DNA of 64,000 bases from Gammaproteobacteria bacterium (GCA_965277405.1 OZ255726.1:2110578-2174577); one strand, 5' to 3'; positions 1,412 to 55,737 are shown, numbered from the stretch's first letter. Program-made: numbers and translations. Notes: generated from the sequence alone by a model not told the origin.

Positions 1412-1458
1412 GGCAGCTCCGATTAACTCGCTCCATCAGCGACTTAATCAGAGCTTCC
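1412..1458. repeat. 47-bp palindromic IS5-end-like mini-element, full copy
   Basis: GGCAGCTCCGATTAA-CTCGCT-CCATC-AGCGAC-TTAATCAGAGCTTCC followed by CTAA. Confidence 0.85.
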
Positions 1459-1641
1459 CTAACTGCTTCCATGGAATAACAGCTGCTAATTTCTCAAGCA
1501 ATATTTCACTACAGGTTTTGCGTTGTTTATGTGCGTATTCCAATTCTGCAAACGTCATTTGCTTCATATCAATGCTCAACAACAATAGTTAGAGCATTAT
1601 GACATATTAGCAATTATTTTGGGGGTTTTATCAGAGCTGCC
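1459..1641 (-). mobile_element. IS5-family left-end remnant (terminal IR plus transposase N-terminus)
   Basis: Minus strand begins GGCAGCTCTGATAAAA next to CTAG (1642-1645). ATG 1567 gives MKQMTFAELEYAHKQRKTCSEILLEKLAAVIPWKQL, matching IS5-group transposase N-termini. It is truncated at the mini-element. Confidence 0.8.
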
Positions 1642-2164
1642 CTAGGTGGAATTTCCTCCCAAAGCATCACTACAACAAAGCTTTTGAGCTGTTGATACCC
1701 GCATGCGATGATTTTTTGAGTAATGAGGAATAAAGATATTTTCTATGCAAACATATGTTAATGCAGTGGTCTTAAGATGGGCACAAATACTACAGATCCT
1801 CTATAACCAAGAGGCGTTATATGATATCTTTCAAGAGAGCAGGCTTGCTACAATCAGCGTCCAAATGACAATTTTTATTAACATATCTTAATATTGCGCT
1901 TTAAGCACTCAAATGATCACAAGACTTAATATTTTTGTGTAGTATGCTCCAACTTTAGCATAGTAATTGCTGAACATACTGCGTAGGTTGCCAATATCAT
2001 TGACTGCTCAATGTGTGTGATTTGCTTGCCAAAGGTCTAATAGTTCATGGTTTCTTAGTTGTATATATAATAGTTGTATATGTATAGTTGTATTATAGTT
2101 GTGTTGTATAGTTGCTGATCCGCAATGGTTAGTATTTATTTAACGCTTTGTTGTTATTTTTAGG

Positions 2165-3685
2165 ATGAGACATATGGATGCTGTTATCTCTTGGGTAGGA
2201 GGAGTAGTTTGGAGTCCTGCATTAGTTTACTTGCTGCTGATTGTGAGTTTAGTTTATTCAGTATATACGCGCTTTGTACAAGTACGCTTGTTTAAGCATA
2301 TGTTTAGCTTATTGCGTTTAAAGAAAGATACTGCAAAAGGCATATCGTCGTTCCAAGCGCTTGCAGTTACGCTTTCTGGACGTGTTGGTACTGGTAATAT
2401 TGCTGGTGTTGCCGCTGCCATTGGCTTTGGTGGACCTGGTGCGGTGTTTTGGATGTGGGTGGTGGCTTTTTTAGGCGCTGCTACTTCATATATTGAATGT
2501 ACCTTAGGACAAATTTATAAGGAAAATGATAGGGATAATATAGAGTATCGTGGCGGTCCTGCTTACTATATTGAAAAAGCTCTTAACTGGAAGTGGTTCG
2601 CTATATTGTTTTCAGTGGTAACCTTAGCTTCTGTAGGTATTTTCTTACCTGGCGTGCAGGCTAACGGCATTGCTAACGCTTTTCAAAATGCTTTTGGGGG
2701 TACTCACATGATGAGTATTTTTGGAGATTCCGTTACCGATACGCAACTTTGGGCAATTATATTTATTGTGGTGGTGTTAGCCATCATTATTATAGGGGGG
2801 ATTAAGCGTATTGCTAAGTTTGCACAAATTGTAGTGCCTTTTATGGCATTGGCTTATATTTTGCTTTCCCTCACTATCATCATTAGCAATATTACTGAAC
2901 TGCCACGTGTCATTGGCTTGATTGTGGGCGACGCATTTGCACCGATGGCAGGTTTAGGTGCTGTAATTGGTTGGGGTGTTAAACGTGGGGTTTACTCTAA
3001 CGAAGCTGGGCAAGGTACCGCACCACACGCCTCAGCTGCTGCTAATGTAGAGCATCCTGCACAACAAGGCTTAGTACAAGCGCTCTCCGTTTACATTGAT
3101 ACTTTATTGGTTTGTAGCTCCACAGCATTTATGATCTTAATTACTGGCTCTTACAATGTAAAAGGTGTCGATGGTGGCTTTGTAGTACAAAATTTAGCAG
3201 CCGATATCAGCGCCAATGGCCCAGCTTTTACCCAAACCGCAATCGAAACTGTGTTACCAGGAACCGGTGCAGTGTTAGTTGCTTTTGCATTGCTGTTTTT
3301 TGCTTTCACAACCATTTTAGCCTACTACTATATGGCAGAAACTAATCTCAGCTACCTGATGCGTAATAGTAGTTATGACGGTAAAGCTTGGCTTTTTATC
3401 TTAAAAATAATCCTTATTGTATCGGTATTTTACGGCGGTGTTAAATCAGCAGAGCTTGCTTGGGAATTAGGTGATATAGGGGTTGGTTTGATGGCATGGG
3501 TAAACATTATTGCTCTCATTATTATTACCTTTAAAGCCAAACCTGCTCTTAGAGCATTAAAGGACTATGAAGCGCAAAGGGCGCAAAAAGTATCTTCATA
3601 CAGTTTTGACCCTAAATCCTTGGGGATTGAAGGGGCAACATTTTGGGAAGATAAATTAGAACAGAAAAAAATTAGTAAATCTTAA
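2165..3685 (+). CDS. Alanine/glycine:cation symporter (AGCS family)
   Basis: GISSFQAL..LSGRVGTGNIAGVA, GGPGAVFWMW, YRGGPAYY and KRGVYSNEAGQG signatures. Confidence 0.95.
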   Translation: MRHMDAVISWVGGVVWSPALVYLLLIVSLVYSVYTRFVQVRLFKHMFSLLRLKKDTAKGISSFQALAVTLSGRVGTGNIAGVAAAIGFGGPGAVFWMWVVAFLGAATSYIECTLGQIYKENDRDNIEYRGGPAYYIEKALNWKWFAILFSVVTLASVGIFLPGVQANGIANAFQNAFGGTHMMSIFGDSVTDTQLWAIIFIVVVLAIIIIGGIKRIAKFAQIVVPFMALAYILLSLTIIISNITELPRVIGLIVGDAFAPMAGLGAVIGWGVKRGVYSNEAGQGTAPHASAAANVEHPAQQGLVQALSVYIDTLLVCSSTAFMILITGSYNVKGVDGGFVVQNLAADISANGPAFTQTAIETVLPGTGAVLVAFALLFFAFTTILAYYYMAETNLSYLMRNSSYDGKAWLFILKIILIVSVFYGGVKSAELAWELGDIGVGLMAWVNIIALIIITFKAKPALRALKDYEAQRAQKVSSYSFDPKSLGIEGATFWEDKLEQKKISKS

Positions 3686-3699
3686 TTGGTTGAATCAAC

Positions 3700-3735
3700 T
3701 GCAAACAAAGCGGCTGCTAGCCCCTTTGTTTTGCA
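3700..3735 (+). terminator. Probable intrinsic terminator hairpin after the AGCS gene
   Basis: Imperfect stem TGCAAACAAAGCGGCT-GCT-AGCCCCTTTGTTTTGCA with a T-rich 3' arm, 14 bp after the stop. Confidence 0.55.
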
Positions 3736-3924
3736 AGACTATGTTGATACGCCAGCTGATTATTTAACAAACAGTTGCTATTCCTAAAGAGTAGACAAGG
3801 CATTGGTATAAATCTTGCAAGAAGAGGCGTCATTATAGTCAGCGGCTGGTTTGATATTTTGCTGTAATAACCTTTATCTGCGTATATGGCATTTGTTACT
3901 GGAAGCGACTACTTTGTCCGCCAA

Positions 3925-5286: not shown

Positions 5287-5430
5287 TGTTTTCAACATTT
5301 ATTTGATTGTATTGTCAAATTTCAATTTAACAACTATCTATATTGTTACTTAGCGATATTTATAGTGCTTTACGCTTGGGTAAGCTACGATAAATATAAA
5401 ATTACTAAAAAAAAATGGCGGCACGCATCG

Positions 5431-5464
5431 GGAATCTCTGATTAACTCGCTGATGGAGCGAGTT
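5431..5464. repeat. Mini-element copy (left arm plus inner hairpin)
   Basis: GGAATCTCTGATTAA-CTCGCT-GATGG-AGCGAG-TT. Confidence 0.8.
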
Positions 5465-5755
5465 TGGCTGCAATATTCTAAGATATAAGCGCATAATAGC
5501 CTGATTACATATTGTATGTCTGGCTGTTATTTTGTAGTCTGGCTGTTATTCATTAGTGATGTATTTATCTTGTCCATATCGTCTGCTGATAAGACAAACC
5601 AACCACTCTTTGCTTGATTCGCGTTTCCTGGGACAATAAAAATTGTTTTTATTGAAATCAAACTCATTGAAAAAGGCTTTACAATTTTATAATAGTTTTT
5701 CATTATTTTATATTCATCGAATACAATCTATTTACTAAAATCTTTGTTATTTACC

Positions 5756-5770
5756 TTAATCAGAGGTTCC
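5756..5770. repeat. Mini-element/IS5 right arm
   Basis: TTAATCAGAGGTTCC followed by TTAG. Confidence 0.75.
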
Positions 5771-5789
5771 TTAGAGATTACTCAAACAG

Positions 5790-6575
5790 CTATTGCGAAA
5801 TGCAGCGCGTGCTGTTGTCGATAAAGCGCAGGGCAGAAAGCACAGTTAACGCCGATGTTTTAGGGTTACCAGGCAGCTGGTTGCTGGCAATAGTAAAATG
5901 CATGTTGCCAAAATCTCCATGCGCGTCGATGGTATGGACATTTTGACGAATGTTAGGGTCAGCGTATAGCCTGACAACGGTGGCATCAAGCCCTATTCCT
6001 GCTAGCGCAACGCTGGCGGTGACATTGGCATTTTTTGGAAAGGCTAACGCAGCATTGCGTGCTGTGTCATGAAACAACAATGTTTTTTCATTGAGTTTAG
6101 CTAAATCAAACTGCTGCTGTGCTTGAGTTCCTGACCAACTCATCGGTGGTTTACACGCGCTATAGCTGACAGATTGTAATTTGCCAAAACTGGCAGAGCG
6201 CAGCGCATCAATGGCTCCAATAGCGCCAGCAAGCAAGTGGAGCTTGGCGTTGCTGGGAATAGCAGCTAATATTGTTGGATCTGCCAGCGCGCCGATTGAT
6301 AACATGCCGCATTCATACCCATGTTGCAGCGCTGGGACGAGGTGTATTTTGACAGCAGCATGTTCGGCACACTCGATGATGAGGGCATCTTGCGGCAAGG
6401 TTTGATGGTCGATTGATGCGCTGAAAACTGTGTCGCCTGTGGCAGTAGCTTGCAGTTTGGCTACGCGTGCTGGAGTTTCTATGATACGGATTATCGACGC
6501 AGCATTGGTTGTTTGGATGGCTGCGTGAATGGCTGAGCCGATGGCTCCAAAGCCAATTAAAACAATAGGGCGCAT
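5790..6575 (-). CDS. nadX: L-aspartate dehydrogenase
   Basis: LIGFGAIG Rossmann motif, SIGALAD, GAIGAIDAL, KPP.SW, FPKNANVTA, NVHTI and NPKTSAL. Confidence 0.9.
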   Translation of the reverse strand: MRPIVLIGFGAIGSAIHAAIQTTNAASIIRIIETPARVAKLQATATGDTVFSASIDHQTLPQDALIIECAEHAAVKIHLVPALQHGYECGMLSIGALADPTILAAIPSNAKLHLLAGAIGAIDALRSASFGKLQSVSYSACKPPMSWSGTQAQQQFDLAKLNEKTLLFHDTARNAALAFPKNANVTASVALAGIGLDATVVRLYADPNIRQNVHTIDAHGDFGNMHFTIASNQLPGNPKTSALTVLSALRFIDNSTRCISQ

Positions 6576-13376: not shown

Positions 13377-13424
13377 GGCAATTTCTGCTTAACTCGCTCC
13401 ATCATGGACTTAATCAGCGCTTGT
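13377..13424. repeat. Mini-element, degenerate full copy abutting the ABC ATPase stop codon
   Basis: GGCAATTTCTGCTTAA-CTCGCT-CCATC-ATGGAC-TTAATCAGCGCTTGT followed by TTAG (13425-13428), which contains the ATPase stop. Confidence 0.75.
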
Positions 13425-14039
13425 TTAGAGCAAAATTGTTCGCTCTGATTGGTCGGCTGCATCGTGGGTTACCACAATGCAGGGAATTTGACGGTGGCGT
13501 ATATGTGCATATACAAAGTTGCGTATTTCTTGGCGCAAGTGACTGTCGAGTGCATTAAATGGTTCGTCTAGTAACGCAACAGTAGGGTTGGACAATAGCA
13601 TGCGCATCAGAGAAATGCGTGACTTTTGACCGCCAGAAAGCTGCTGAGTTGCTCGATTTGCGTAATGGTCAAGCTGGATAGTAGCCAACGCTTCCATAGC
13701 CATAGCCTGCCGTTGTGCGCCGCGTACGGACGCAGGTATTGCAAACAATAGATTGTCTATTACGCTCATGTGCGGAAACAATAAATCGTCTTGAAACAAC
13801 ATGCCAACGTTGCGTTTATACGGTGGTAGTTGTTGTAAATCAGTGCCATTTAAACAAATAGTGCCGGTTGCATGCACTGCTGGGAGCAGCGTTCCGGCAA
13901 TCCACTGGAGTAATGTCGACTTACCGCAGCCGCTTTTTCCCATTAATGTCACAATTTCCCCTGATGCAACTGTTAAAGAAAAACCATCGAAAAGCTGATG
14001 GCTGCCTGCACGAATTGCGACGTCGTTGAGTTGTAACAT
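13425..14039 (-). CDS. ABC transporter ATP-binding protein (YnjD-like)
   Basis: GKSGCGKST Walker A, MLFQDDLLFPH, LSGGQ, LLDEPF and VTHD; ATG 14039 overlaps the permease stop. Confidence 0.9.
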   Translation of the reverse strand: MLQLNDVAIRAGSHQLFDGFSLTVASGEIVTLMGKSGCGKSTLLQWIAGTLLPAVHATGTICLNGTDLQQLPPYKRNVGMLFQDDLLFPHMSVIDNLLFAIPASVRGAQRQAMAMEALATIQLDHYANRATQQLSGGQKSRISLMRMLLSNPTVALLDEPFNALDSHLRQEIRNFVYAHIRHRQIPCIVVTHDAADQSERTILL

Positions 14040-15766
14040 TATTGTTGTTTTGTTTGCATAAGCGGGAAGAAATGGGTACTGCAATACTGTGCGAGTATGC
14101 TTAGGATAAATGGGACGACCGCCAGCCACACAACAAGACCGCCAATAATTCTTCGGTCAAGCGAGCTCCCTTGCGCTACTAACGATGTCATCAAGGTTTG
14201 TATGCGCCCATCACCAATAAAAAATGTCGGTAAGAATAAATGAAAACTCACAGTTACCCCCAGCACAAATGCAAACAGTAATGGTTTGAGTAATAGTGGT
14301 AATGTTACCGAATACCACACAATACATGGATGCTTGCCAAGTAATTGCGCTGTTTGTGCATAGCGGCTGTCAAATTTTTTATATGCTTGCTGCAACAATA
14401 AATACTGAAACGGCATTGTGAAAAAAAAGTGTGACCATATCAGTCCTATATAGCTGCCGCTGGTTTGGGTATGCAGGGTTAATGAATACAGCCCAGGTAC
14501 CAAGATTATCTGTGGCAGGATTAATGGAATATACGCAATGATAGTATGCAGTGGTTTATTGCTGCGTTGTAACTCAAACGTTGCAGTGACCACCACTAGA
14601 CTAAGGAATGCGCTGACGCTGCCAATCAACAATGATTGACTCAATAACTGTAGACATTGCTCATGCAAAAGATATGCATAGCTGTACTGGAGTGGAATAA
14701 TGTTTGGATAGCGCCACTCCCAAACGAACGACCAGACAACCATAATCAACGCAAGAAAGTAGGCTGCTAATATTAGCAATACCAGCAACGATAGCCCGCC
14801 GCGATATATTCCTGTTTCGCCAAAACGGCGTCCTTGACGAATCCAACAATAAAACAAGGAGCGCCAGCATCGTTGCAGCAATAAGAACCCGGCGATTGTC
14901 AGCGCAACCAAGCCAAGCAATAGGATTCCACCAGCAGCGCTCATATGTTCAAATTGTGCGCTGATAAGTGGGTCAAATGATGCATTGGTGGACCATTCCC
15001 AAAGCAGTACCCCAATGAGAGGCTGGCGGTTTTGGGTGCTTAATGTTGCAACTTCTACATTGCTGAGGACAAATATAAAAACAATAAGCAGCGGTAGCTT
15101 GATACGCGTATAGATATCCGGCATCAATAAATACAACATTGATTGCCAGCGGTTATATCCTAAAGAGCTTCCTAGCATCAGCATTTTATGCACTGGTAGG
15201 GTGGTGCAAAAAATACTTGCAAGTACCAGCAAGTATAATGTCTCTTTGCCCACCATCACCAATAAATAGCCAATACCATTTGCAAGCGGCCAAGCTGCAA
15301 TATCAGCATGAATACCAACGCTATGCAATACTCGCGCCAGTAGTCCTTGTGAGCCAAATACAAATCCTAGGCCAAATGTGAGGTGCACATGGGCTATAAT
15401 GAGTATGCCTATTAAACTGATCAAACAAACACGCTGTGTCGCGCTGTTAGTTGTTGCCCAATAACCAAATACACAAGTGACAATACTACAAACAAGTAAC
15501 AAAGAAATGCCAGTTGCAGCAACAGTCAACAACCATGATTGCAATATACTTGCCCACCACGTAGAATTAGTTAAAACGGCATAAAAAGAGTCACTAGACC
15601 ACCGCGAAATAACTATGCCCATTTCGATTTTTTCAATTGACTGAAAAGCAGGAGCAAGGCACAACCACAATGCAAATCCACATGGTAATGTGACAACACA
15701 ATGAAAAATATAATTGTCTTTTTCCCTAAAAAACTGCAAAATTTCTGCAAAAAATTTGCCAATCAT
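14039..15766 (-). CDS. ABC transporter permease with duplicated domain (YnjC/ThiP-like)
   Basis: Two EAA-like loops (MLMLGSSLGY, AQTAQLLG), WSFVWEWRYP and PTFFIGDGRIQT; adjacent to the YnjD-like ATPase. Confidence 0.8.
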   Translation of the reverse strand: MIGKFFAEILQFFREKDNYIFHCVVTLPCGFALWLCLAPAFQSIEKIEMGIVISRWSSDSFYAVLTNSTWWASILQSWLLTVAATGISLLLVCSIVTCVFGYWATTNSATQRVCLISLIGILIIAHVHLTFGLGFVFGSQGLLARVLHSVGIHADIAAWPLANGIGYLLVMVGKETLYLLVLASIFCTTLPVHKMLMLGSSLGYNRWQSMLYLLMPDIYTRIKLPLLIVFIFVLSNVEVATLSTQNRQPLIGVLLWEWSTNASFDPLISAQFEHMSAAGGILLLGLVALTIAGFLLLQRCWRSLFYCWIRQGRRFGETGIYRGGLSLLVLLILAAYFLALIMVVWSFVWEWRYPNIIPLQYSYAYLLHEQCLQLLSQSLLIGSVSAFLSLVVVTATFELQRSNKPLHTIIAYIPLILPQIILVPGLYSLTLHTQTSGSYIGLIWSHFFFTMPFQYLLLQQAYKKFDSRYAQTAQLLGKHPCIVWYSVTLPLLLKPLLFAFVLGVTVSFHLFLPTFFIGDGRIQTLMTSLVAQGSSLDRRIIGGLVVWLAVVPFILSILAQYCSTHFFPLMQTKQQ

Positions 15767-18333: not shown

Positions 18334-18358
18334 CATCAGCAACTTAATCAGAGCTTCC
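18334..18358. repeat. Mini-element half copy forming the pilW 3' end
   Basis: CATCAGCAAC-TTAATCAGAGCTTCC; on the minus strand it reads GGA AGC TCT GAT TAA (GSSD*). Confidence 0.8.
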
Positions 18359-18913
18359 ATAAGGCAAAATGGCAATAGTGATTGATTCACTGGCGACTGG
18401 TGTATCAACAAACAGTCGGATATGTTGCGGGTTTTGTATTGTTGCCACCCAATGATGTCCGTCAAAACCTTCAGCATTGAATGCTGCTACAAAGTCCACC
18501 AAGTTAGCGCTGGTACCATTGGATCTGCAATTGAATTGTTGTGTAGTCGCATCGACAACCGCAAATGCATTGACAATTAAGGCTTGGTCGTTGAGCATGC
18601 TCCGATTGCCCAAACAATTTGCATCTCCAAGATAGTCACCTAAACGAAAGGTATGGAAAGTCACTAAAGGATAGCTACTACCAACATGCAAATTAGTAAC
18701 GCCTGAGCTGTTGACGCTCTGGCTATATTGCAATATCAACCCAAACACTGCACGGACAGTGGACTGATGAGCAATCAACTCATGGATGCGCTTGGCGGTA
18801 CGGTTGAATTGAATGACCGCCTCTGAGGCAAACACCATAATCAATGCGGCAATACTCAGCGCTATCAACATTTCACATAACGTAAAGCCGTGTTGTGTTT
18901 TCGTAATAGCCAC
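18344..18913 (-). CDS. Type IV minor pilin, PilW-like
   Basis: Prepilin motif QHG/FTLCEMLIALSI; Cys pair in DANCLG and FNCRS; follows a pilV-like gene; GTG start at 18913 is likely. Confidence 0.7.
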   Translation of the reverse strand: MAITKTQHGFTLCEMLIALSIAALIMVFASEAVIQFNRTAKRIHELIAHQSTVRAVFGLILQYSQSVNSSGVTNLHVGSSYPLVTFHTFRLGDYLGDANCLGNRSMLNDQALIVNAFAVVDATTQQFNCRSNGTSANLVDFVAAFNAEGFDGHHWVATIQNPQHIRLFVDTPVASESITIAILPYGSSD

Positions 18914-18914
18914 A

Positions 18915-19283
18915 TTACCAATAGTACATGACAAAGCGGAGTTGCTGCTGTTGGATTTCAACACATGCTGTTGCTTGACACGTGGAAAATCTTTGCAACA
19001 GTAATTTACTGCTATTGCCTTGGCTGCCATCGATGCGCCATTGATTTATTGCCGAGTAGGCATGGATAGCAGCCTGTTGTTGAAATCTTGCTTGTTGTAA
19101 TTGGTTATTGGCGAGATGAAAAAACGCATATGAAACGGCAACATATATAGAAAATATACTCAGCGCAACCAATGCTTCAATGATGGTTGTGCCTTGCTGA
19201 CGCTGTGGATATTGGTGTTGGGTAATCTGCTGGTGTCGCCGTGTTTTTCGCAATTGAGCGTAATGAAGCGCAGCAATAACCAT
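18915..19283 (-). CDS. Type IV minor pilin, PilV-like
   Basis: QQG/TTIIEALVALSIFSI prepilin motif followed by QQARFQQQAA. Confidence 0.7.
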   Translation of the reverse strand: MVIAALHYAQLRKTRRHQQITQHQYPQRQQGTTIIEALVALSIFSIYVAVSYAFFHLANNQLQQARFQQQAAIHAYSAINQWRIDGSQGNSSKLLLQRFSTCQATACVEIQQQQLRFVMYYW

Positions 19284-22303: not shown

Positions 22304-22339
22304 GGTAGTGATTAACTCGCTATCATGGACTTAATCAGC
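22304..22339. repeat. Mini-element, degenerate copy
   Basis: GGTAG-TGATTAA-CTCGCT-ATC-ATGGAC-TTAATCAGC; shares the ATGGAC variant with the copy at 13377. Confidence 0.75.
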
Positions 22340-22419
22340 AGATAAAACATCAAAAAAATTGTGGTGGAATTATTTGTCTGTATAAGGTGATTTGTATGGA
22401 GGAAGTGTATGGACAAGGA

Positions 22420-23028
22420 ATGCCGAAAGCCATTACAGCATATGTTAGCTTGGTTGATGCGATAAATCAGAAGGTTGGGCAGTTTGCCATGTATCTGGTG
22501 ATTGCCATGATTATCGTGCTTTTTTATGCCACGGTGGTAAAAAATTTCTTGCTGCCTTCTCTGTGGACGCTGGAAGTTTCACAATTTATTATGGTTAGCT
22601 ATTATCTGCTAGGTGGCGGCTATACGCTGCAAAATGGCAGTCATGTACGCATGGATTTGCTATATGGCAGATGGTCGCCAACAACCAAGGCTGCGGTGGA
22701 TTGTTGCACAATTTTGTTCATGATTTTTTATTTAGTTATCTTGTTGCGCGGGGGCTTGTCTAGCACTTCGTATGCGCTTGAATATGGCGAGCGCGGGCGT
22801 TCTATCTGGCAACCTTATATAGCGCCGATCAAAATTATTGCCTGTGTCGGGATTGCGTTGATGTTGGCGCAGGCCGTGGCTGAATTATGCAAGGATATCG
22901 CCAGGGTTAAAGGCATTGAAATTGGTGTCCGACCTGCAGATGATGCTGTCAGAGCCTTGCAAGGCGAGGAACGTTCCAAGCAACCTCTGCTTAAGTCCAT
23001 GATGGGCGAAACGGAGCAAAAACAGTGA
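22420..23028 (+). CDS. dctQ: TRAP transporter small permease
   Basis: YYLLGGGYTL...HVRMDLLY and PIKIIACVG; 4 TM segments. Start is ATG 22420, or up to 22387. Confidence 0.9.
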   Translation: MPKAITAYVSLVDAINQKVGQFAMYLVIAMIIVLFYATVVKNFLLPSLWTLEVSQFIMVSYYLLGGGYTLQNGSHVRMDLLYGRWSPTTKAAVDCCTILFMIFYLVILLRGGLSSTSYALEYGERGRSIWQPYIAPIKIIACVGIALMLAQAVAELCKDIARVKGIEIGVRPADDAVRALQGEERSKQPLLKSMMGETEQKQ

Positions 23029-24418: not shown

Positions 24419-25477
24419 ATGACTAACAGAAGGAATTTTATAAAAAATACTGGTCTTGCCAGTGTTGCAGCAGGGGCGATACTTGCAGCCCCGGCAATTC
24501 GAGCGCAACCTGCTAAAATCACTTGGCGCTTGCAGACCTATGCCGGTCCTGCATTGGCTGAACATGTCATCAAACCTATGATTGACTCATTCAACAAAGT
24601 TGCCGCTGGTCAGATGGAAATCCAGCTTTTCACAGCTGACCAGCTCGTGCCGACTGGTGAATTGTTTCGCGCCATGCAAAATGGGGTGATTGATGCAGTA
24701 CAATCAGACGAAGATTCTATAGCAGCTCCTGTAGACGTATCGGTTTTTGGCGGATATTTCCCGTTTGCAACCCGTTACAGCCTCGATGTGCCAGTGCTTT
24801 TCAATCAATATGGTTTGAAAGAAATCTGGGAAGAAGCTTATAGCGAAGTAAAAAATGTGACATGGCTTTCAGCAGGTTCTTGGGATCCTTGCCATTTCAA
24901 TACAAATAAGCCAATTCGTTCGCTTGCAGATTTGCAAGGTTTGCGCGTGTATACCTTCCCAACTGCTGGACGCTTTCTCTCACAGTTTGGTGTTGTGCCA
25001 GTTGAAATTCCGTATGAAGATGCTGAAGTTGCGGTGCAAACTGGCGAACTTGACGGCATGGCATGGTCTGGCATTACCGAAGATTATACCGTTGGCTGGG
25101 CTGACGTTACCAAATATTTTCTCACCAATAATATCGCTGGTGCATGGATTGGTTCGTTCTTTGCAAATACGGATAAATGGAACGAAGTACCGCCACATCT
25201 TCAGGAATTATTCCGCCTTTGCATGGATTCATCGCATTACTACCGTCAGCATTGGTATTGGGGCGGCGAAGCAAAACTGCGTACTCTTGCAGCCGATCAA
25301 GGACGTAAACTTGAGCTAACCTCCATTCCTGATGAAGAATGGGCACAAGTTGAAACCAAAGCGCGTCAGTTCTGGGATGACATTGCCAAAGGCAGCGAGC
25401 GCAGTGCCCGTGTTGTGAAAATCCTTAAAGAATATTCAGCCGTTATGGGCAAAGCAGGCAAACCGTACCGTAGCTAA
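24419..25477 (+). CDS. dctP: TRAP substrate-binding protein with Tat signal (TakP/FcbT1-like group)
   Basis: NRRNFIK Tat motif, ITWRLQT, KPIRSLADLQGLR and VQTGELDG; AAGGAG RBS upstream. Confidence 0.93.
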   Translation: MTNRRNFIKNTGLASVAAGAILAAPAIRAQPAKITWRLQTYAGPALAEHVIKPMIDSFNKVAAGQMEIQLFTADQLVPTGELFRAMQNGVIDAVQSDEDSIAAPVDVSVFGGYFPFATRYSLDVPVLFNQYGLKEIWEEAYSEVKNVTWLSAGSWDPCHFNTNKPIRSLADLQGLRVYTFPTAGRFLSQFGVVPVEIPYEDAEVAVQTGELDGMAWSGITEDYTVGWADVTKYFLTNNIAGAWIGSFFANTDKWNEVPPHLQELFRLCMDSSHYYRQHWYWGGEAKLRTLAADQGRKLELTSIPDEEWAQVETKARQFWDDIAKGSERSARVVKILKEYSAVMGKAGKPYRS

Positions 25478-25488
25478 ATTGCTCTACA

Positions 25489-25519
25489 GACTTAAACAGA
25501 GCTTCCTTCTGGAAGCTCT
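25489..25519 (+). repeat. Mini-element arm plus inverted arm forming a hairpin after dctP (possible terminator)
   Basis: GACTTAAACAGAGCTTCC-TTCT-GGAAGCTCT. Confidence 0.65.
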
Positions 25520-25724
25520 ATTCTATGCGAGTCTAAGCAGATGAAAGAGCGGATAGAATAATTGCTATTCTAAAAAAAACGCAAAATAAGTACGTCATCG
25601 CCTCCAATATTTTTATCAAAGTACTGATTGATGAAAAACATCACTCCTTGTTTTCTTATGAGATTTTCTACATAGCACAGAAAAAAGGTCATAGCATTGG
25701 AGCTGTACGTGAACATCGACATAA

Positions 25725-25747
25725 GGAAGCTCTGATTAAGTCGCTCC
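25725..25747. repeat. Mini-element left half upstream of sdhC
   Basis: GGAAGCTCTGATTAA-GTCGCT-CC, enclosed in the inverted repeat ATCGACATAAGG...CCTTATGTCGAT. Confidence 0.8.
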
Positions 25748-25816
25748 CTTATGTCGATTGGTTTGTTTTTTTTGTTTGGCTGTGTAGTATCTTCACCATT
25801 GTTTTAGGAGTGTTTT

Positions 25817-37106: not shown

Positions 37107-37130
37107 GGAATCTCTGATTAAGTCGCTCCA
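37107..37130. repeat. Mini-element left half between sucD and tal
   Basis: CTAA then GGAATCTCTGATTAA-GTCGCT-CCA. Confidence 0.82.
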
Positions 37131-43815: not shown

Positions 43816-43951
43816 ATCTAGAGCATTTACAATATAATTTTATTCGATATAGTTGTTGATCTTAGATATTATTCGTTAACATAATATGAGCAAACTAAGG
43901 TAACTCATATGAGATAACTAAGGTAACTCAAAAGCTAAATATGGAAACCAC

Positions 43952-44287
43952 ATGGAACACTTAGACAAAATAAATGCACTCCTAAGCCAGAATGCGCGGA
44001 TTCAAGCCGAAATCAGACAGCACATGGGTAATGCGCTTGAAGAATCATACCAAAGCCTCGTAAAGATTGCAGATCAGCACCCAGATGGTATTCACGGGAT
44101 TATGGAGCATTTACAAAAAATGGTCGTAAAATCACACGGACCGAACGCAAGGTTGCGCAAACCTGTCGCCCCTAAATACCGCAACCCTCATGATGCGTCA
44201 CAAACCTGGACAGGGCGTGGCCGTAAGCCAAAATGGGTTACCAGCTACCTTACAATACACTCTAATTTAGATGACGTTACGATTTGA
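43952..44287 (+). CDS. hns: H-NS-family nucleoid protein
   Basis: C-terminal PKYRNP...TWTGRGRKPKW DNA-binding motif. Confidence 0.9.
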   Translation: MEHLDKINALLSQNARIQAEIRQHMGNALEESYQSLVKIADQHPDGIHGIMEHLQKMVVKSHGPNARLRKPVAPKYRNPHDASQTWTGRGRKPKWVTSYLTIHSNLDDVTI

Positions 44288-44293
44288 ATTCAA

Positions 44294-44317
44294 GGTAGCT
44301 TTGATTAAGTCGCTGTT
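44294..44317. repeat. Mini-element left half just after hns
   Basis: GGTAGCTTTGATTAA-GTCGCT-GTT. Confidence 0.72.
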
Positions 44318-44423
44318 GCTTTTGATGTATAGCTTGCAGCAACTTGGATAAACACCGCATCAACCGCTATTTGATACAAATACTGTTATTCTCTGCAAAT
44401 GCTATCCATTCACCAGAGGGTAA

Positions 44424-45909: not shown

Positions 45910-46641
45910 GGAATCTCTGAATAATTCACCAAATTTGATTTTCTCGACGCAGCAATGCTCAAAAACGATAAACTCAAAAGCTGAAAAGCTGAAAAGCTAT
46001 TTTGTTAATTTTTTATTGTTTTTCATGGGTTTTTGCTGAATTTCCTATGTTTTGGACGCACTAACCCTATGTTTGCGGCAAATACTTGTAACTGCGCACA
46101 AGATTTGTAAGTCCAGCAAGCATGTATAGTCGGTTGGTATTCTTTGCTAAGCTTGTATATATTAAGCTTGTATATATCTTGTATATATCTTGTATATATC
46201 TTGTATATATAATGTAGCGTACTTTGCTATATCCAAACATTCGTTGCATATACAAGAATACATGCTCAACTTTGGCGCGAACACTGGCTTTCAATTTCTC
46301 AAGCTGCTGCTGGACCACTCCCTGCTTTCAATTGGCGCTGCTTGCCGATACGTTGACTTATTAACCAGGATGTTGCCCGTTGCTGATGTTCTGGGCGTTG
46401 CTGCACGCCTACATAACCCGCATCGCCAACAACACGCCGTTCATCGCCATGCAAGAGCTTATCAGGGTCACATCGTTGCCATTACCCGCCGTGGTTTCCC
46501 AAGCTATGAATCATTCCAGAGCTTTCATCAACACCAACATCAACTTTCATGCCAAAGTACCACTGCTGGCTTTCCTTGTTTGCTGCATTTGCGGATCACG
46601 GGCTTGCTGTTTATTCTTAGGTTGTTGGTCGCGTCGATGAT
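45910..46641 (-). mobile_element. IS5-family remnant (right end and frameshifted transposase C-terminal half)
   Basis: Terminal GGAATCTCTGAATAA after CTAA (45906-45909); fragments RDPQMQQTRK, WYFGMK..VGVD, GDAGY, KASVRAKVEHVF...FGYSKVRY and LAKN in different frames. Confidence 0.85.
46152..46210. repeat. 11-bp tandem repeat CTTGTATATAT x5 inside the IS5 remnant
   Basis: Copies start at 46152, 46167, 46178, 46189 and 46200. Confidence 0.9.
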
Positions 46642-46644
46642 GGC

Positions 46645-47176
46645 GTATACAGCATATCCCTCATGAAGCTGGCAGGTGATATATCTCCCCGTTTATTAAG
46701 CTCAAACCAACGCAACCATCCACAATATTTATGAAGATTTTTAGTTGCAACACTATGAAAAGGGGCTAGCCACTGCGATCGATGCCAATCACAGCCTTCA
46801 CTGTAGATGCCTTGCTATTACCGCGTTTTCGCGGCTTGCCCGTGGTTAAATAGCGACTGCCTTTTTCAGAATATTTAAACCAAGTTTCATCCATTGCGAC
46901 AATGCCTGCAAGCTGCTTGCTCATCAGCAAATCAGCCAATTTAAGAAATTTATGCTGGCATGTGAATGCCGTGGTGAGGTTGATGCCGCATTCCTTTGCA
47001 GTAATCCTTTGCAGCAACACGCAGCGATTTCGCATCAACCATCGTTTGTCCAGTATTGTTCCCACAGTTCAGGCTTATGCAGAGCCTTCAATGCTGAACC
47101 CGTTATGCATTATAGGTTTTTAAGCATGACCGACAACGATACCGCTGGACGTTCTGGCGACGTGCCCCACTTATAG
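46645..47176 (-). mobile_element. Degraded copy of the IS1595 element at 116-1139
   Basis: Highly similar to positions about 146-273 and 508-901, with the internal segment deleted at GCCA microhomology; frameshifted and lacking intact termini. Confidence 0.9.
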
Positions 47177-47187
47177 CTAAGGAAGTT

Positions 47188-48240
47188 CTAGTTAAATGAT
47201 GTATGCCGCAATTCATCTACACTCCAACGCGGCATAGCCTGAATTGTTGTTGATTGCTTGGCAATTCCATGCTCAAGGCGTAATGCAGCTGTAAATGCTA
47301 TCATCGCCGCGTTGTCATTGCAGAACGCCTGATCTGGAAAAACAACATCTAGTTGTTTTTCTGCGCTGAGCCGTTGGCGTAGCCGTAGATTTGCACTGAC
47401 ACCACCGCCGACGACTAATCGGTGAATATTATGTTTAGCGCAGATAAAGCGCGCCTTAAGGGTAAGGATATCGACAATGGCAGCTTCAATGCTTGCTGCA
47501 ATATCAACACGTAGCTGGGCTAGCTGTACGTCTGATAATGCCTGTATTGCATAGCGCGCTGCGGTTTTTAGTCCGCTAAAACTCATGTCGCCATTGTTGC
47601 TATGACGCATTGGTCGAGGGAAATTAAAAGCTGTTGGGTTGCCAGTTGCCGCAAGCTTTGCTAATGCGGCACCGCCTGGATATCCCAACCCCAGCATTGT
47701 TGCGGTTTTATCAAACGCTTCACCCGCCGCGTCGTCTAAGGTATCACCAATAATTGTGTAATCACCGAGTGATTTGACCAATATAAATTGAGTGTGTCCA
47801 CCTGATACCAGCAACGATATAAACGGGAAAACTGGTGGACTAGCATGGATAAAGGCTGCGAGCACATGGGCTTCTAGGTGATGGGTTGGAATGGCTGGAA
47901 TGGCTAATGACCATGCGAGTGATGTTGCAAATGCGCTGCCAGTAAGCAATGCTACAATCAAACCTGGGCCTGCGGTATAGCTAATGTGGCTTATTTGTGC
48001 CAAGCTACAATTGCATTTTTGCAATGTTTCATCAATCATTGCTGGCAGGCGTTGGGCATGGTCACGTGCTGCAAGTTCTGGCACAACTCCGTGATACGGA
48101 GCATGCAGAGTATATTGGGAAAAAACCTCGTTTGCTGTTAATCTGCCATGCCAAACTTCATGGGTATAGCTATATACTGCAATGGCAGTTTCGTCACAAG
48201 ATGTTTCGATTGCTAAAATTTTTTTTTGAGAATGAATCAT
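47188..48240 (-). CDS. tsaD: tRNA N6-threonylcarbamoyladenosine biosynthesis protein
   Basis: ILAIETSCDET, GVVPELAARDH, HHLEAH, VSGGHT, DDAAGEAFDK and DNAAMIA; likely start ATG 48240 (the longer ORF overlaps proA). Confidence 0.96.
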   Translation of the reverse strand: MIHSQKKILAIETSCDETAIAVYSYTHEVWHGRLTANEVFSQYTLHAPYHGVVPELAARDHAQRLPAMIDETLQKCNCSLAQISHISYTAGPGLIVALLTGSAFATSLAWSLAIPAIPTHHLEAHVLAAFIHASPPVFPFISLLVSGGHTQFILVKSLGDYTIIGDTLDDAAGEAFDKTATMLGLGYPGGAALAKLAATGNPTAFNFPRPMRHSNNGDMSFSGLKTAARYAIQALSDVQLAQLRVDIAASIEAAIVDILTLKARFICAKHNIHRLVVGGGVSANLRLRQRLSAEKQLDVVFPDQAFCNDNAAMIAFTAALRLEHGIAKQSTTIQAMPRWSVDELRHTSFN

Positions 48241-49504
48241 GAAGTCGCAAACTACTGTAGTTGAATTGTTAAGCCAAGCACAATTGAGCAAAAATGCGAT
48301 TGCCACAGCAACGACTGCACAAAAAAATGCCGCTCTCAACGATATTGCCCAGTTATTGTATGCACAGCAAGCTGATATTATTGCTGAGAATGTTAAAGAC
48401 TTAGCCGCGGCACAGGCGCTTGGGCTAACAGCAGCGCAAATTGATAGATTATTGCTCGATGCGCAAGCTATTGCGGGTATTTGCACCAACGTTGAACAAA
48501 TAATATCGTTAACAGACCCTGTGCGGGCAATGACCGATTTTGTCCGGCAGCCATCGGGGATTAGCGTTGGCAAAATGCGGGTGCCAATAGGCGTTATTGT
48601 TATGATTTATGAAGCGCGTCCAAACGTGACCATCGATGCGGCTGCATTGTGCCTAAAATCTGGCAATGCAGTTATTCTTCGTGGCGGCAAAGAAGCGTGG
48701 CACAGTAATCAAATTTTAGCAAAAATTATCCGCCAAGCCTTAGCCAATAACAACCTGCCCGTCGATTGCGTGCAGATGGTGACATCGACTGACCGCAACA
48801 TAGTCAGCGAACTAATTGCCAATGAAGACGCTGTTGATTTGGTCATTCCACGCGGCAGCAAAAGCTTGATTGCACGCATTGTGCGCGATGCTCGTGTCCC
48901 TGTACTCAAACATTTAGATGGAAATTGCCATGTTTACATCGATGGCGATGCTGATATCAATATGGCCATCAACATTGCGATCAACTCTAAAACACGGCGG
49001 TATGGTGTCTGCAATGCTTGTGAATCATTGGTGGTTGCAGCACCAATATCCGCAGCCATCCTCCCTGTTCTTGGAGACGCCTTATATCAACACCAAGTAA
49101 CGGTGTATGCAGATAGTGCCTCACTTAAATTACTCCCAGCCAGTCCATTGCTGCATGCAGCAACGCAGTCACATTATTCTCAAGAGTTTCTTGGTCCTGA
49201 GATTTCTATTAAAATTGTCCCAGGCATTGCAGAGGCAATAGCGCATATCAATACGTATGGATCACACCATAGCGATACCATAGTCAGTAACAATTACACG
49301 ACAATCAACGCTTTTACCTGCGGCGTAGACTCAAGTTCCGTGCTCGTGAACGCTGCAACAGGATTTGCTGATGGTTTTGAATACGGCTTGGGCGCAGAGA
49401 TTGGGATTTCCACAGCAAAATTACACGTGCGCGGTCCTGTTGGTTTGGAAGGATTAACGATACAAAAATACGTTGTCTTCGGTTCTGGTCAGATCCGCAC
49501 GTAA
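48239..49504 (+). CDS. proA: Gamma-glutamyl phosphate reductase
   Basis: IYEARPNVT, KSGNAVILRGG, VCNACE, GSHHSD and EIGISTAKLHVRGP. Confidence 0.97.
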   Translation: MKSQTTVVELLSQAQLSKNAIATATTAQKNAALNDIAQLLYAQQADIIAENVKDLAAAQALGLTAAQIDRLLLDAQAIAGICTNVEQIISLTDPVRAMTDFVRQPSGISVGKMRVPIGVIVMIYEARPNVTIDAAALCLKSGNAVILRGGKEAWHSNQILAKIIRQALANNNLPVDCVQMVTSTDRNIVSELIANEDAVDLVIPRGSKSLIARIVRDARVPVLKHLDGNCHVYIDGDADINMAINIAINSKTRRYGVCNACESLVVAAPISAAILPVLGDALYQHQVTVYADSASLKLLPASPLLHAATQSHYSQEFLGPEISIKIVPGIAEAIAHINTYGSHHSDTIVSNNYTTINAFTCGVDSSSVLVNAATGFADGFEYGLGAEIGISTAKLHVRGPVGLEGLTIQKYVVFGSGQIRT

Positions 49505-50474: not shown

Positions 50475-50489
50475 CAAATTAATTGCCGC

Positions 50490-52343: not shown

Positions 52344-52355
52344 GGACACAATGTC

Positions 52356-53501
52356 ATGCTGGTATTAACAAATTTTTTTAAACGTGTTGGCTTAATTGAT
52401 GTTCGTGTCAAAACGGTTCCATCGATGCTATACCGCATCAATATTGACCCATTGATGGCATTGTTGCTGGTCTTATTAGCCGCCTACAGCATTGTCATTG
52501 TCAATAGTGCCGTTTCATTAAATCCATCATTTATTCAAGCGCACGTTGTTAGAATTGCAATGGCTTTCTTACTGATGTTCCTAATCGCTCAAGTCAATAT
52601 TAATTTTATTCGAATACTTACTCCATGGATATTTCTTGCAGCCATCATTTTACTGATTGTACTTATTCCATTGGGCAGCATCAAAAATGGCGCAAGAAGA
52701 TGGCTAGAACTTGGCGTTTTTAGCATCCAACCGTCTGAGATTATTAAAATCATCTTGCCAATGTTTCTAGCGTGGTATTTGAGCAAAAGGCAATTACCTA
52801 TTGGCTATTTTGATATCCTCGTTTGCTCGATATCCATCGCCATACCATTTTATTTAGTTGTGCGTCAGCCAGATTTAGGCACGGCAATGATGTTGGGCAT
52901 GATTGGCGTTACGGTGATGTTTTTAGCTGGTCTGCCAAGATTGATTATTGGCCTCGGTTTTACAGCAACAGCGGCTGCTGTCCCAATTATATGGAAATAT
53001 TTTTTACTGGATTATCACAAATCAAGAATTATCACATTTCTAGACCCTGCCAGCGACCCACTTGGTGCTGGCTGGAATATTACTCAATCTATTATTGCCA
53101 TTGGATCTGGCGGCTTTTCTGGCAAAGGATATTTGAATGGCACCCAAGCGCAATTAGAGTTTTTACCAGAAAGTCACACAGACTTTATATTTCCTGTTAT
53201 TGCAGAAGAATTTGGATTCCTAGGCGTATTATTGTTATTTATGTTGTATGCAGCAATCATTATTCGCGGTATAAAAATGGCAACTATGACAAGAAATATA
53301 TACAATCGTTTGGTGATAACTTCATATATATTTACTTTATTCCTCTATATTTTTGTGAATGTCGGTATGGTGTCTGCCATGCTACCGATTGTTGGAGTTC
53401 CACTACCATTTATTAGTTTTGGCGGCACCTCAATGGTAACGTTGATGGTCGGCATGGGTGTATTAATGTCTGCCAATTCACAAAAATACCTACTCGAATA
53501 A
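52356..53501 (+). CDS. rodA: Peptidoglycan polymerase RodA
   Basis: GARRW, QPSE, QPDLGT, LPESHTDFIF and GVPLPFISFGG. Confidence 0.96.
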   Translation: MLVLTNFFKRVGLIDVRVKTVPSMLYRINIDPLMALLLVLLAAYSIVIVNSAVSLNPSFIQAHVVRIAMAFLLMFLIAQVNINFIRILTPWIFLAAIILLIVLIPLGSIKNGARRWLELGVFSIQPSEIIKIILPMFLAWYLSKRQLPIGYFDILVCSISIAIPFYLVVRQPDLGTAMMLGMIGVTVMFLAGLPRLIIGLGFTATAAAVPIIWKYFLLDYHKSRIITFLDPASDPLGAGWNITQSIIAIGSGGFSGKGYLNGTQAQLEFLPESHTDFIFPVIAEEFGFLGVLLLFMLYAAIIIRGIKMATMTRNIYNRLVITSYIFTLFLYIFVNVGMVSAMLPIVGVPLPFISFGGTSMVTLMVGMGVLMSANSQKYLLE

Positions 53502-53502
53502 T

Positions 53503-54498
53503 ATGCTATTACGATTGTACTCAGCCCTTGTTGCTGCTATTAGTATTGGAATTTGCAGCAGTAGTCTTGCCAAAGAATATGATTTTTTACAACATCAGCA
53601 CGTCCATGACTTTATTCATTCATTTGCCCAGCGTTCCGCCTATTCGCAAAATCAACTCGAAGATATTTTTGCAAAAATAACCCATCAACAACGTGTGATT
53701 GACCTCATCAATACACCAGCAGAAAAACAGTACACTTGGCAACGGTATCGACAAATCTTCATTCAACCAACACGTATTGCTGCCGGCAAGAAGTTTCTGC
53801 AACAGCATGCAACAATACTCACAACTTTAGAACGTAAATATGGTGTACCTCGTGAATATCTGGTTGCAATCCTTGGTGTTGAAACAAAATACGGAGCAAA
53901 TACTGGAGGATTTAAAGTTCTAGAAGCACTCGCAACACTGGCATTTGACTACCCACGCCGAGGCGTTTTTTTTACCAACGAGCTTAAGCACTACCTACGC
54001 TTAACAAAAAAAAACAACTTTGACTCATTCCACCTTGTCGGCTCATATGCTGGTGCCATGGGTATTCCTCAATTCATGCCAAGCAGTTATAGCCGCTATG
54101 CCCTTGGCTATAATGGCGCGAAACGATCCGACATATGGACGAACAACTCCGATGCGCTCGCTTCTGTCGCCAACTACTTAGCAAAAAAAGGCTGGCAGAG
54201 AAATCGCACTGTGTTAATCCAAATAGGCAAACCAACAAATCAAGCGCAACGTAACCAAGCCATTGCTGCTGCCAATTCCACGTTAAAACCAAATAATACG
54301 TGGTCAAAAATTTGTAATCTTGGGCTGATTGCCACAACAGGGGTATATGAGGATTCTTCATATGCGTTGTTTCATGTCAAACTCAATGGAGTAGATCAGT
54401 TTTTTGTTGGTAGTTATAATTTTTATGTGCTATCACGCTACAACCCAAACCTGTTTTATGCGCTAGCTGTGCACCAACTTGCAGAACAATTATCATGA
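53503..54498 (+). CDS. mltB: Lytic murein transglycosylase B
   Basis: ILGVETKYG, LAFDYPRR, GSYAGAMG.PQFMPSS, SVANY and RYN...YA.AV. Confidence 0.93.
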   Translation: MLLRLYSALVAAISIGICSSSLAKEYDFLQHQHVHDFIHSFAQRSAYSQNQLEDIFAKITHQQRVIDLINTPAEKQYTWQRYRQIFIQPTRIAAGKKFLQQHATILTTLERKYGVPREYLVAILGVETKYGANTGGFKVLEALATLAFDYPRRGVFFTNELKHYLRLTKKNNFDSFHLVGSYAGAMGIPQFMPSSYSRYALGYNGAKRSDIWTNNSDALASVANYLAKKGWQRNRTVLIQIGKPTNQAQRNQAIAAANSTLKPNNTWSKICNLGLIATTGVYEDSSYALFHVKLNGVDQFFVGSYNFYVLSRYNPNLFYALAVHQLAEQLS

Positions 54499-55700
54499 AC
54501 AACTACTATTCACATATTTTTTCACATATTTTTCGCCATTTGTTTGCTTTCAGTCTTGTTGTCTGCAGCTCAATGGTTTTTTCAGCCACGCCCATTCTTG
54601 GGGTTCCTCCAATCTCAATCAAAGCAAGGTCATATATTCTGTATGATTATTATTCAGGAAAAATCATTGTTGGAAACAACTATAATGCGGAAATTCCACC
54701 AGCCAGCTTAACAAAACTGATGACTAGTTTTATTGTTGCTGAACAAGTTAACGCTGGTAATTTAAAACTTACTGATACGGCAACTGTCAGCAAGAAAGCC
54801 TATAAAGCTCCTGGCTCACGGATGTTTTTAGAGTTCAATAGCAAAGTCAGCATTGATGAACTTCTAAATGGCTTGGTTATTCAATCAGGCAATGATGCTG
54901 GAACAACTCTTGCTGAGCATATTGCAGGTAGTGAACTTTCTTTTGCAAGAATAATGAATACAGAAGCAGAAGCCATTGGCATGACACACTCAAGTTTTAT
55001 GAATGCAACAGGCTTGCCAGAAGAAGAACATTATTCAACGGCGTATGATATGGCATTACTTACGAAAGAAATTATTAGTAGGCATCCACGCCACTATCAT
55101 CGATATGCCAAAAAGTCTTTTACTTATAACAATATTAGACAGCTTAATCGCAATAAATTACTATGGAGAGATGACAGGGTAGATGGTTTAAAAACTGGTC
55201 ATACCCAGGAAGCAGGGTATTCGTTGGTAGCATCAGCAGTTGATAAATCACTGCGTTTAATTGCTGTGGTAATGGGGGCAAAATCTGCTTTAGGACGTAC
55301 CAATGAAGTGCAACGATTGCTACAATTTGGTTTTAATTACTATGAAATGCGCGATATTTTTCCTGCTGGACAAAATCTTGCCACGGCTACCATCTGGTTT
55401 GGAGAGAAAGATCAAATAAATGTCATCAGCGCTACGCCAATAAAAGTGCTTGTTCCAAAAGGACACACGTCGCCACTTAACGCAGTAATGAACATTGACA
55501 CAATTATCAAAGCACCTATTTTAGCAGGTGAGACAGTTGGCTCTGTTGATATCACCTATGAAGGAGAGGTACTGGAAACATTTGAGCTTATTGCTGAAAC
55601 AACTATTGTAGAAGCCACAACTTTTAAAAAGATGTGGCACGGAATTGTGCTCTATTTCAATGATCTTATGAGTAAATTTAACACGATTTTTTTGTCTTAG
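54495..55700 (+). CDS. dacA: D-alanyl-D-alanine carboxypeptidase (PBP5/6)
   Basis: PASLTK, SGND and LKTGHT motifs. Confidence 0.93.
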   Translation: MNNYYSHIFSHIFRHLFAFSLVVCSSMVFSATPILGVPPISIKARSYILYDYYSGKIIVGNNYNAEIPPASLTKLMTSFIVAEQVNAGNLKLTDTATVSKKAYKAPGSRMFLEFNSKVSIDELLNGLVIQSGNDAGTTLAEHIAGSELSFARIMNTEAEAIGMTHSSFMNATGLPEEEHYSTAYDMALLTKEIISRHPRHYHRYAKKSFTYNNIRQLNRNKLLWRDDRVDGLKTGHTQEAGYSLVASAVDKSLRLIAVVMGAKSALGRTNEVQRLLQFGFNYYEMRDIFPAGQNLATATIWFGEKDQINVISATPIKVLVPKGHTSPLNAVMNIDTIIKAPILAGETVGSVDITYEGEVLETFELIAETTIVEATTFKKMWHGIVLYFNDLMSKFNTIFLS

Positions 55701-55737
55701 GGTAGCTTTGATGAAGTTGCTGACGCAGCGAATTATT
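55701..55737. repeat. Mini-element, degenerate copy directly after the dacA stop
   Basis: TTAG then GGTAGCTTTGATGAA-GTTGCT-GACGC-AGCGAA-TTATT. Confidence 0.7.

Follow-up and report, generated by a model that had tools for sequence, protein, structure and literature searches.

The closest described element to the one reported here is MITEPsy1 of Pseudomonas syringae pv. phaseolicola (Bardaji et al. 2011), a 100-nt MITE (miniature inverted-repeat transposable element) with IS5-type ends that was trapped while transposing in vivo; that report gives a 4-nt duplication at CTAG or YTAA and describes it as thought to be derived from, and moved by, the IS5-family insertion sequence (IS) ISPsy2 (PMC3189936). 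MITEs derived from IS5 are thus already known, one of them is mobile by experiment, and the class is not new. We analyzed a 64,000-nt stretch of DNA from a Gammaproteobacteria bacterium (GCA_965277405.1, OZ255726.1:2110578-2174577), hereafter called the window, in which a 47-bp palindromic element recurs at 12 loci. The unit consists of a 21-nt arm, a 5-nt spacer (CCATC), and a second 21-nt arm, and it is without coding capacity. We interpret this family as minimal non-autonomous MITEs derived from an IS5-group IS, a reading to which we assign a probability of roughly two-thirds; the 47-mer would then probably be a new, unusually small, fossil member of the known class of IS5-derived MITEs.

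As published, MITEPsy1 is like the 47-mer in being non-coding, in having IS5-type inverted ends, and in lying inside other transposons and at the 3' ends of genes; by our own count, its published left end agrees with the 47-mer arm at 14 of 18 bases. The two differ in architecture (100 nt with internal sequence, compared with 47 nt with a 5-nt spacer here), in number (about 6 copies per genome in the published description, compared with 12 loci in 64 kb here, or about 1 locus per 5 kb), and in status, transposition of MITEPsy1 having been shown by experiment whereas that of the 47-mer is something we infer, for a family that looks extinct (PMC3189936). The original prediction, a note drawn up from the sequence alone, held that the element is much shorter than typical bacterial MITEs, and this was borne out: in a census of 1.4 million bacterial MITEs, the smallest measures 49 bp and the median is 104 bp (PMC11602168), which puts 47 bp at the floor of what detection tools report, and the available text of a 2024 review of MITEs states no size limit (PMC10969869). 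Full-length IS5-group elements (E. coli IS5, Marinobacter IS5, and ISPre1) share the terminal pattern of the 47-mer, which differs from them in having no transposase.

Other families of small repeats offer a wider comparison. Repetitive extragenic palindromic (REP) sequences, bacterial interspersed mosaic elements (BIMEs), and the Correia elements of Neisseria are, like the 47-mer, small, abundant, intergenic, hairpin-forming repeats that affect neighboring genes. REPs are linked to Y1 transposases (REP-associated tyrosine transposases, RAYTs) and are without DDE-type ends, and Correia elements measure 100 to 155 bp and have a TA target. Among eukaryotes, Tourist-type MITEs make up large non-autonomous families of elements hundreds of base pairs long, with a 3-bp duplication and a TAA/TTA-type target; they are moved by PIF/Harbinger transposases, a superfamily related to IS5.

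We evaluated the repeat against shuffled sequence. The outer 15 bases of the arm, GGAAGCTCTGATTAA, were found 11 times in the window at up to 2 mismatches, whereas 100 dinucleotide shuffles averaged 0.11 matches and never gave as many; two of the 11 matches are the ends of IS5 remnants (1627-1641 and 45910-45924). The full 21-nt arm, GGAAGCTCTGATTAA(C/G)TCGCT, gave 13 matches at up to 5 mismatches; 20 mononucleotide shuffles averaged 0.35, with no more than 2 in any of them. An nhmmer profile scan of the window returned 12 loci at E < 0.05, a result that is circular for these copies since the profile was made from them; the same scan gave no further locus below E = 1, and a search of the window with the center motif gave no extra copy.

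All of the positions listed in the original prediction hold a copy; one copy had been missed (22980-23009, at the 3' end of dctQ), and the copy placed at 25489 starts at 25475. The proposed consensus of two 21-bp arms and a 5-nt loop also holds, with the qualification that only one copy is near-intact and that no perfect palindrome is present among the 12 loci. In addition to the near-intact copy (E1), there are two full-length degenerate copies (E3 and E5), nine partial pieces, and one weak relic (E11). Two arms are perfect 21-mers and several others have 1 mismatch. Copies lie in 10 of the 23 intergenic gaps of at least 30 bp, the gaps being taken from our own list of open reading frames (ORFs). 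The copies are as follows, with extents obtained by aligning each site to the 47-mer:

E1, 1412..1458, plus strand: near-intact, positions 1-47 with 2 mismatches (arm, CCATC, arm); sits in an IS5 transposase ORF at TTAG.
E2a, 5431..5464, minus strand: 34 nt, consisting of arm, loop, and 8 nt of the second arm.
E2b, 5755..5770, plus strand: 16-nt outer arm with flank TTAG (profile E = 0.046).
E3, 13377..13424, plus strand: full-length degenerate copy with ATGGAC (right-end type); flank TTAG.
E4, 18334..18358, plus strand: single arm plus 4 loop bases.
E5, 22304..22345, plus strand: full copy, degenerate and internally deleted; ATGGAC type, starting GGTAG.
E6, 22980..23009, minus strand: arm, loop, and about 5 nt; ATGGAC type (profile E = 1.4 × 10−6), within the 3' end of dctQ.
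E7, 25475..25506, plus strand: about 35 nt with indels, beginning at the dctP stop codon.
E8, 25725..25747, plus strand: perfect 21-nt arm plus CC.
E9, 37107..37130, plus strand: arm plus CCA, flank CTAA, between sucD and a transaldolase gene.
E10, 44294..44318, minus strand: arm plus loop remnant, GGTAGCTTTGAT variant, 6 nt past the H-NS stop codon.
E11, 47181..47195, plus strand: weak end relic with 3 mismatches in 15 bases; flank CTAA.
E12, 55701..55735, minus strand: about 35 nt, GGTAGCTTTGAT variant; flank TTAG.

E2b may be the other piece of E2a, a single unit having been interrupted behind position 34 by unique DNA of about 290 bp; we considered whether these 290 bp were another repeat and rejected this, as they have no second copy in the window. 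E11 is not significant alone, being missing from both the 15-mer matches and the profile matches, and it is placed exactly where the homology of a degraded IS1595 copy stops.

The arms of the 47-mer are IS5-group terminal repeats. Comparison of the arms with the ends of the fetched Marinobacter IS5, ISPre1, and E. coli IS5, a check that had been proposed with the original prediction, showed the same terminal pattern in each. The left end of Marinobacter IS5 differs from the arm at 2 of 16 bases and has TTAG duplications, and TTAG/CTAA flanks were read directly on the fetched IS5-group copies. The window itself holds two IS5-group remnants, which are its only IS5 coding pieces; no intact IS5 transposase is present in it:

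IS5-group remnant 1, 1459..1641, minus strand: left end GGCAGCTCTGATAAA, flank CTAG, first 36 transposase codons, cut off by E1.
IS5-group remnant 2, 45910..46640, minus strand: right end GGAATCTCTGAATAA, flank CTAA, C-terminal transposase pieces, frameshifted and broken by an 11-bp tandem repeat.

Remnant 1 is 57.9% identical to the Marinobacter IS5 transposase over 38 amino acids (tblastn), and the NCBIfam model NF033581 is matched by the window remnants as well as by E. coli InsH, Marinobacter IS5, and ISPre1. The outer 15 bases of the arms had been said to nearly equal the termini of the two remnants. Of these, 13 match each remnant end; of the inner 6 bases, only 2 and 3 match. Furthermore, the inner hexamers of the 47-mer, GTCGCT and GTCCAT, occur in no fetched IS5-group element and in neither window remnant. 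Because the remnants match only the outer 15 bases, the 47-mer is not simply the end of these two copies, and it may be that neither remnant is the parent of the 47-mer.

Next, we looked at the flanks of the copies. YTAR was present at 6 of 14 outer flanks (E5, whose ends have decayed, was left out of the count), compared with a background of 1.1% in the window and 1.7% in its intergenic sequence (P value of about 6 × 10−8), in agreement with the earlier observation of CTAA or TTAG beside several copies. At E1, the IS5 transposase frame is broken after ..IPWKQL, directly behind the last base of CAG TTA G, and the right flank of E1, CTAA, is that same TTAG; the homologue P0122 (77% identical) runs on as ..WKQLDEV. 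This breakpoint indicates that the unit entered a TTAG inside another mobile element. Several copies meet the ends of genes. The stop codon of an ABC ATPase gene (13425-14129, minus strand) lies in the TTAG flank of E3, and that of dacA lies in the TTAG flank of E12. A pilin-like ORF (18344-19030, minus strand) ends with ..GSSD and a stop codon within the E4 arm, the tsaD ORF (47188-48573) has its stop codon inside E11, and the C-terminal tail of DctQ (ORF 22387-23028) reads through E6 (..QPLLKSMMGE..). Element-derived sequence thus supplies the last codons or the stop codon of three ORFs (pilin-like, dctQ, and tsaD). Insertions on or next to stop codons would be explained by the target itself, since YTAR holds TAA or TAG.

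The internal structure of the copies points to copying as a unit. The center TCGCTCCATCA(G/T)(C/G)GAC was present at 4 loci, compared with 0.99 expected, and half-copies keep parts of the loop. Variant bases are shared as well: ATGGAC is common to E3, E5, and E6; GGTAG is common to E5, E10, and E12; and GGTAGCTTTGAT is common to E10 and E12. The shared junction and shared variant bases at separate loci indicate that the 47-mer was copied as a unit, and independent deletion of larger elements is not expected to yield them. Nonetheless, each site might first have received a longer parent, either a complete IS5-type element or a MITE of greater length whose inverted ends were 21 bp, and host slippage between short repeats that the inverted ends had brought together might then have removed its interior, leaving the same 47-bp remnant each time, with the half-copies as further scars. 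In "nearly precise excision" of Tn10, which is transposase independent, a palindromic remnant of about 50 bp is left; our literature search gave nothing usable on it. Such deletion scars would be in keeping with the predominance of partial copies, with the lack of a target duplication at the three full copies, with the decay seen here in the two IS5 remnants and the IS graveyard around the second of them, and with E2, which may be a longer form whose two ends are 340 bp apart. We consider this explanation unlikely, however. No parent with these inner bases is present in the window, where both IS5 remnants differ beyond base 15, and copying of variant 47-mers accounts more easily for the variant bases that dispersed loci share in three sets. 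Moreover, with the loop and the beginning of a second arm already in E2a, E2 looks like a 47-mer split by insertion and not like a parent, and none of the 37 loci found in other genomes is full-length among the matches listed.

These 37 loci came from a scan of species-representative genomes with the 21-mer, in which any base was allowed at position 5 and C or G at position 16; the scan gave at least 37 loci in other genomes (L001 to L037); the counts given here are among the matches listed. Their hosts are Beta- and Gammaproteobacteria, an Acidobacteriaceae metagenome-assembled genome (MAG), Microbulbifer, and Thiomicrorhabdus. The left flank was YTAR at 24 of the 37 loci (background, 0.7%), and a second end was present 35 to 300 bp away at 24 of the 37. 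Identical 4-bp flanks were found in 11 of these 24 two-ended units, 9 of them YTAR, and the units represent at least 11 sequence families with unrelated interiors. We rejected the possibility that the loci are ends of full-length elements, as no IS5 transposase was present within 2 kb at any of the 37. The right ends are not symmetric with the left ones: of the 11 families, 4 have ATGGAC or AAGGAC as the inner hexamer there, and none has AGCGAC. These MITE families, which have 4-bp YTAR duplications, share with the 47-mer of the window an identical 21-nt left end and, in those 4 families, a right hexamer as in E3, E5, and E6. They differ in their interiors of 35 to 300 bp, only two units being comparably short, and the CCATC center was found in none of them. 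The shortest units, observed once each, are L024 (Thiomicrorhabdus MAG; 35 bp, with overlapping arms and a 3-nt center) and L037 (UBA5109; 53 bp), and a 164-bp MITE family recurs at 9 loci in several betaproteobacterial MAGs. One 21-nt end thus serves many unrelated MITE families across phyla, and this may help annotation more than the window family itself.

A search of the plasmid collection PLSDB with the 47-mer (E ≤ 10) gave only 6 places, 21 to 27 nt long and in unrelated genes, which we took as chance; since an exact 21-nt arm would outscore these places, no PLSDB plasmid contains one. The plasmid collection likewise had no match for the IS5 remnant together with E1 or for the IS1595 element that lies next to them. 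Literature searches gave no paper containing the exact 15-mers of the arm and nothing relevant on IS5-family MITEs with CTAG or TTAG targets.

Comparison with the other genomes also bears on the sub-lineages of the window. ATGGAC is the right-end type of the wider MITE group, which indicates that the ATGGAC copies of the window combine a left-type end with a right-type end (left and right inverted repeats, IRL and IRR). The sub-lineage that had been recognized at 13377 and 22304 stands, with 22980 as a further member, and its hexamer is probably not a derived mutation. Mismatches per arm number 4 to 7 in the ATGGAC copies and 0 to 4 in the AGCGAC copies. The ATGGAC sub-lineage is probably the older of the two, and the AGCGAC form, in which both ends are left-type, would be a later and more successful palindromic derivative.

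The partial copies have a consistent form. The kept arm has 0 to 2 mismatches and its partner is wholly gone, and the combination of one near-perfect arm with an absent one indicates loss by discrete deletion. In all, 8 of the 12 loci are without most of one arm, with break points in the loop (E4, E8, E9, and E10) or at positions of about 31 to 35 in the second arm (E2a, E6, E7, and E12). The DNA hairpin of E1 has a folding energy of −10.8 kcal/mol (z = −5.1). Better folding than in shuffled sequence was seen only for E1 and for the 8-bp stem of E2a; E3 (−4.2 kcal/mol) and E12 (−3.2 kcal/mol) do no better than shuffles, and the partial copies have at most an 8-bp stem left. The pattern of breaks would fit the instability of a hairpin-forming palindrome. 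We also asked whether the sequences flanking half-copies are generally inverted repeats of one another (as after fold-back or template switching) and rejected this, as only E8 was significant (P value = 0.0013 compared with random sites), E4 and E9 having P values of 0.14 and the rest higher values. E8 lies within the loop of a 10- to 12-bp inverted repeat of its own flanks, with a T-run after it, upstream of sdhC (25715-25775), and from its sequence this region looks like a terminator hairpin with a half-element in the loop. E7 is followed by TTCT and an inverted 9-mer (25511-25519), and together they make a 9-bp hairpin.

Hairpins of this kind might suggest a REP-like palindrome, one whose hairpins are substrates for a Y1 (RAYT) transposase, or one kept as a terminator, an mRNA stabilizer, or a protein-binding site. 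The 47-mer is indeed palindromic, intergenic, dense (10 of 23 gaps), and often at the 3' ends of genes; E1 folds well, and E7 and E8 form terminator-like hairpins with their flanks. Such an origin is nevertheless very improbable, given that the arms are IS5-group ends with YTAR flanks and that none of the 66 window ORFs scanned contains a Y1 transposase domain (Pfam). Most copies no longer fold, E3 and E12 among them as noted, E1 is not followed by a T-run, and no compensatory stem changes were seen. An Rfam scan at gathering thresholds had no match.

The state of the copies indicates to us a family that looks extinct and decaying rather than active. If the family were still active, an intact IS5-group element in another part of the 2.17-Mb genome would be moving it, and the window copies would merely be old. 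The two perfect 21-mer arms, and the several with 1 mismatch, are in keeping with such activity, and the window is only 3% of the genome, in which the searches for an intact transposase were indirect. We hold continuing activity to be improbable, since the 12 loci include no perfect palindrome, both IS5 copies in the window are wrecks, and searches with the two remnant pieces gave no full-length ORF from the window's own contig. The original prediction of a non-autonomous element made of two IS5 ends that had amplified is thus upheld with regard to the ends, the absence of coding capacity, and the copying of the unit, and is to be amended in that the family looks extinct and its kind was already known.

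We propose the following history for a minimal MITE derived from an IS5-group IS. The ancestral unit would have carried a 21-nt left-end repeat and a 21-nt right-end repeat separated by 5 nt. Both ends would have been recognized by an IS5-group DDE transposase acting in trans, which would have inserted the unit at YTAR tetranucleotides, and because these contain TAA or TAG, many insertions would have come to lie on or beside stop codons and done little harm. A variant with two left-type ends, a near-perfect palindrome, would then have spread most. The transposase would since have been lost or broken, and the copies would have decayed mainly by discrete deletions that took one arm, from the loop or within the second arm.

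Several observations weigh against this history. First, 8 of the 14 outer flanks are not YTAR. The 4-bp flanks of the window copies, when tabulated, showed the YTAR enrichment described above and no duplication: the flanks are identical in none of the three full copies (E1, E3, and E5), the pairs being TGAA/CTAA at E1 and TTGA/TTAG at E3, and those of E5 being unreadable at its decayed ends. Second, the window remnants differ in the inner 6 bases of the arm and may not represent the cognate transposase. Searches with the two remnant pieces gave only split ORFs, on contigs of 11 kb and 236 kb, and none on the window's own contig, which hints that the cognate transposase may be gone from the genome. 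Third, the persistence length of DNA is about 147 bp as quoted in PMC3687335, and a 47-bp duplex, about one-third of that length and with its ends 5 bp apart, should be unable to loop into the usual synaptic complex.

The last point leads to a speculative extension, in which the 47-bp unit would be a working DDE transposase substrate at the physical size limit, handled as an extruded hairpin or cruciform or paired between two copies. We regard this as doubtful. If it were true, each stem of the cruciform would recreate one complete end, and the two cut sites would meet at its base. An IS5-type enzyme would then have achieved REP-like colonization, and 12 loci per 64 kb would extrapolate to about 400 loci in the 2.17-Mb genome. 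The palindrome with two left ends would have outcompeted the left-plus-right form through better extrusion, and the same hairpin would explain the breakage in the loop.

As a minimal IS5-derived MITE, the 47-mer would be an extreme case, an element cut down to two transposase-binding ends and present in nearly half of the window's intergenic gaps. The family would provide a natural lower bound for testing how short a DDE transposon can be, an illustration of how a YTAR target steers insertions onto stop codons, and a natural series of palindrome-breakage products.

The window is otherwise ordinary chromosomal DNA with a GC content of 39 to 47%, carrying sdhCDAB, sucABCD, a TRAP transporter, mrdAB-dacA, enolase, tyrS, and others; a tRNA scan gave no match. 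The best non-self match of its PBP5 (54495-55700) among 5.8 billion proteins was 48% identical, and the matches include Oceanospirillaceae, Marinobacterium, and Marinobacter names; the lack of any relative above 48% indicates that the host is a gammaproteobacterium of an unsampled lineage. The host genome is small (2.17 Mb), and IS debris is plentiful.

Beside E1 lies a complete IS1595-family IS (116-1139, 1,024 bp) with an intact transposase of 316 amino acids (118-1068, minus strand), imperfect terminal repeats beginning GGCT, and an 8-bp duplication, AGCCGATT (108-115 and 1140-1147). We considered this element as the source of the 47-mer arms and rejected it, as its ends and its 8-bp duplication differ. 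In the IS graveyard at 45910-47195, the C-terminal IS5 remnant adjoins, at about 46640, a second IS1595 copy that is degraded and internally deleted and whose two pieces (46645-46776 and 46769-47179) are 97% and 90% identical to the intact copy. CTAA, the E11 relic, and the tsaD stop codon lie exactly where this second copy ends.

Tandem repeats are present at further sites. At 55790-56147, directly downstream of E12 and dacA, a tandem array of 57-bp units (4.5 copies, 95% matches) overlaps an array with a 78-bp period, and a perfect 16-bp inverted repeat (55790-55825) comes before the 57-bp array. Short AT-rich tandem repeats with TGTATATA as their basis occur within the IS5 remnant (CTTGTATATAT four times, 46148-46216) and upstream of an alanine symporter gene (a 15-bp unit 2.9 times, 2056-2097). 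Finally, a 23-bp unit present twice (43884-43930, 91% matches) overlaps a palindrome just upstream of the H-NS-like gene (43952-44287).

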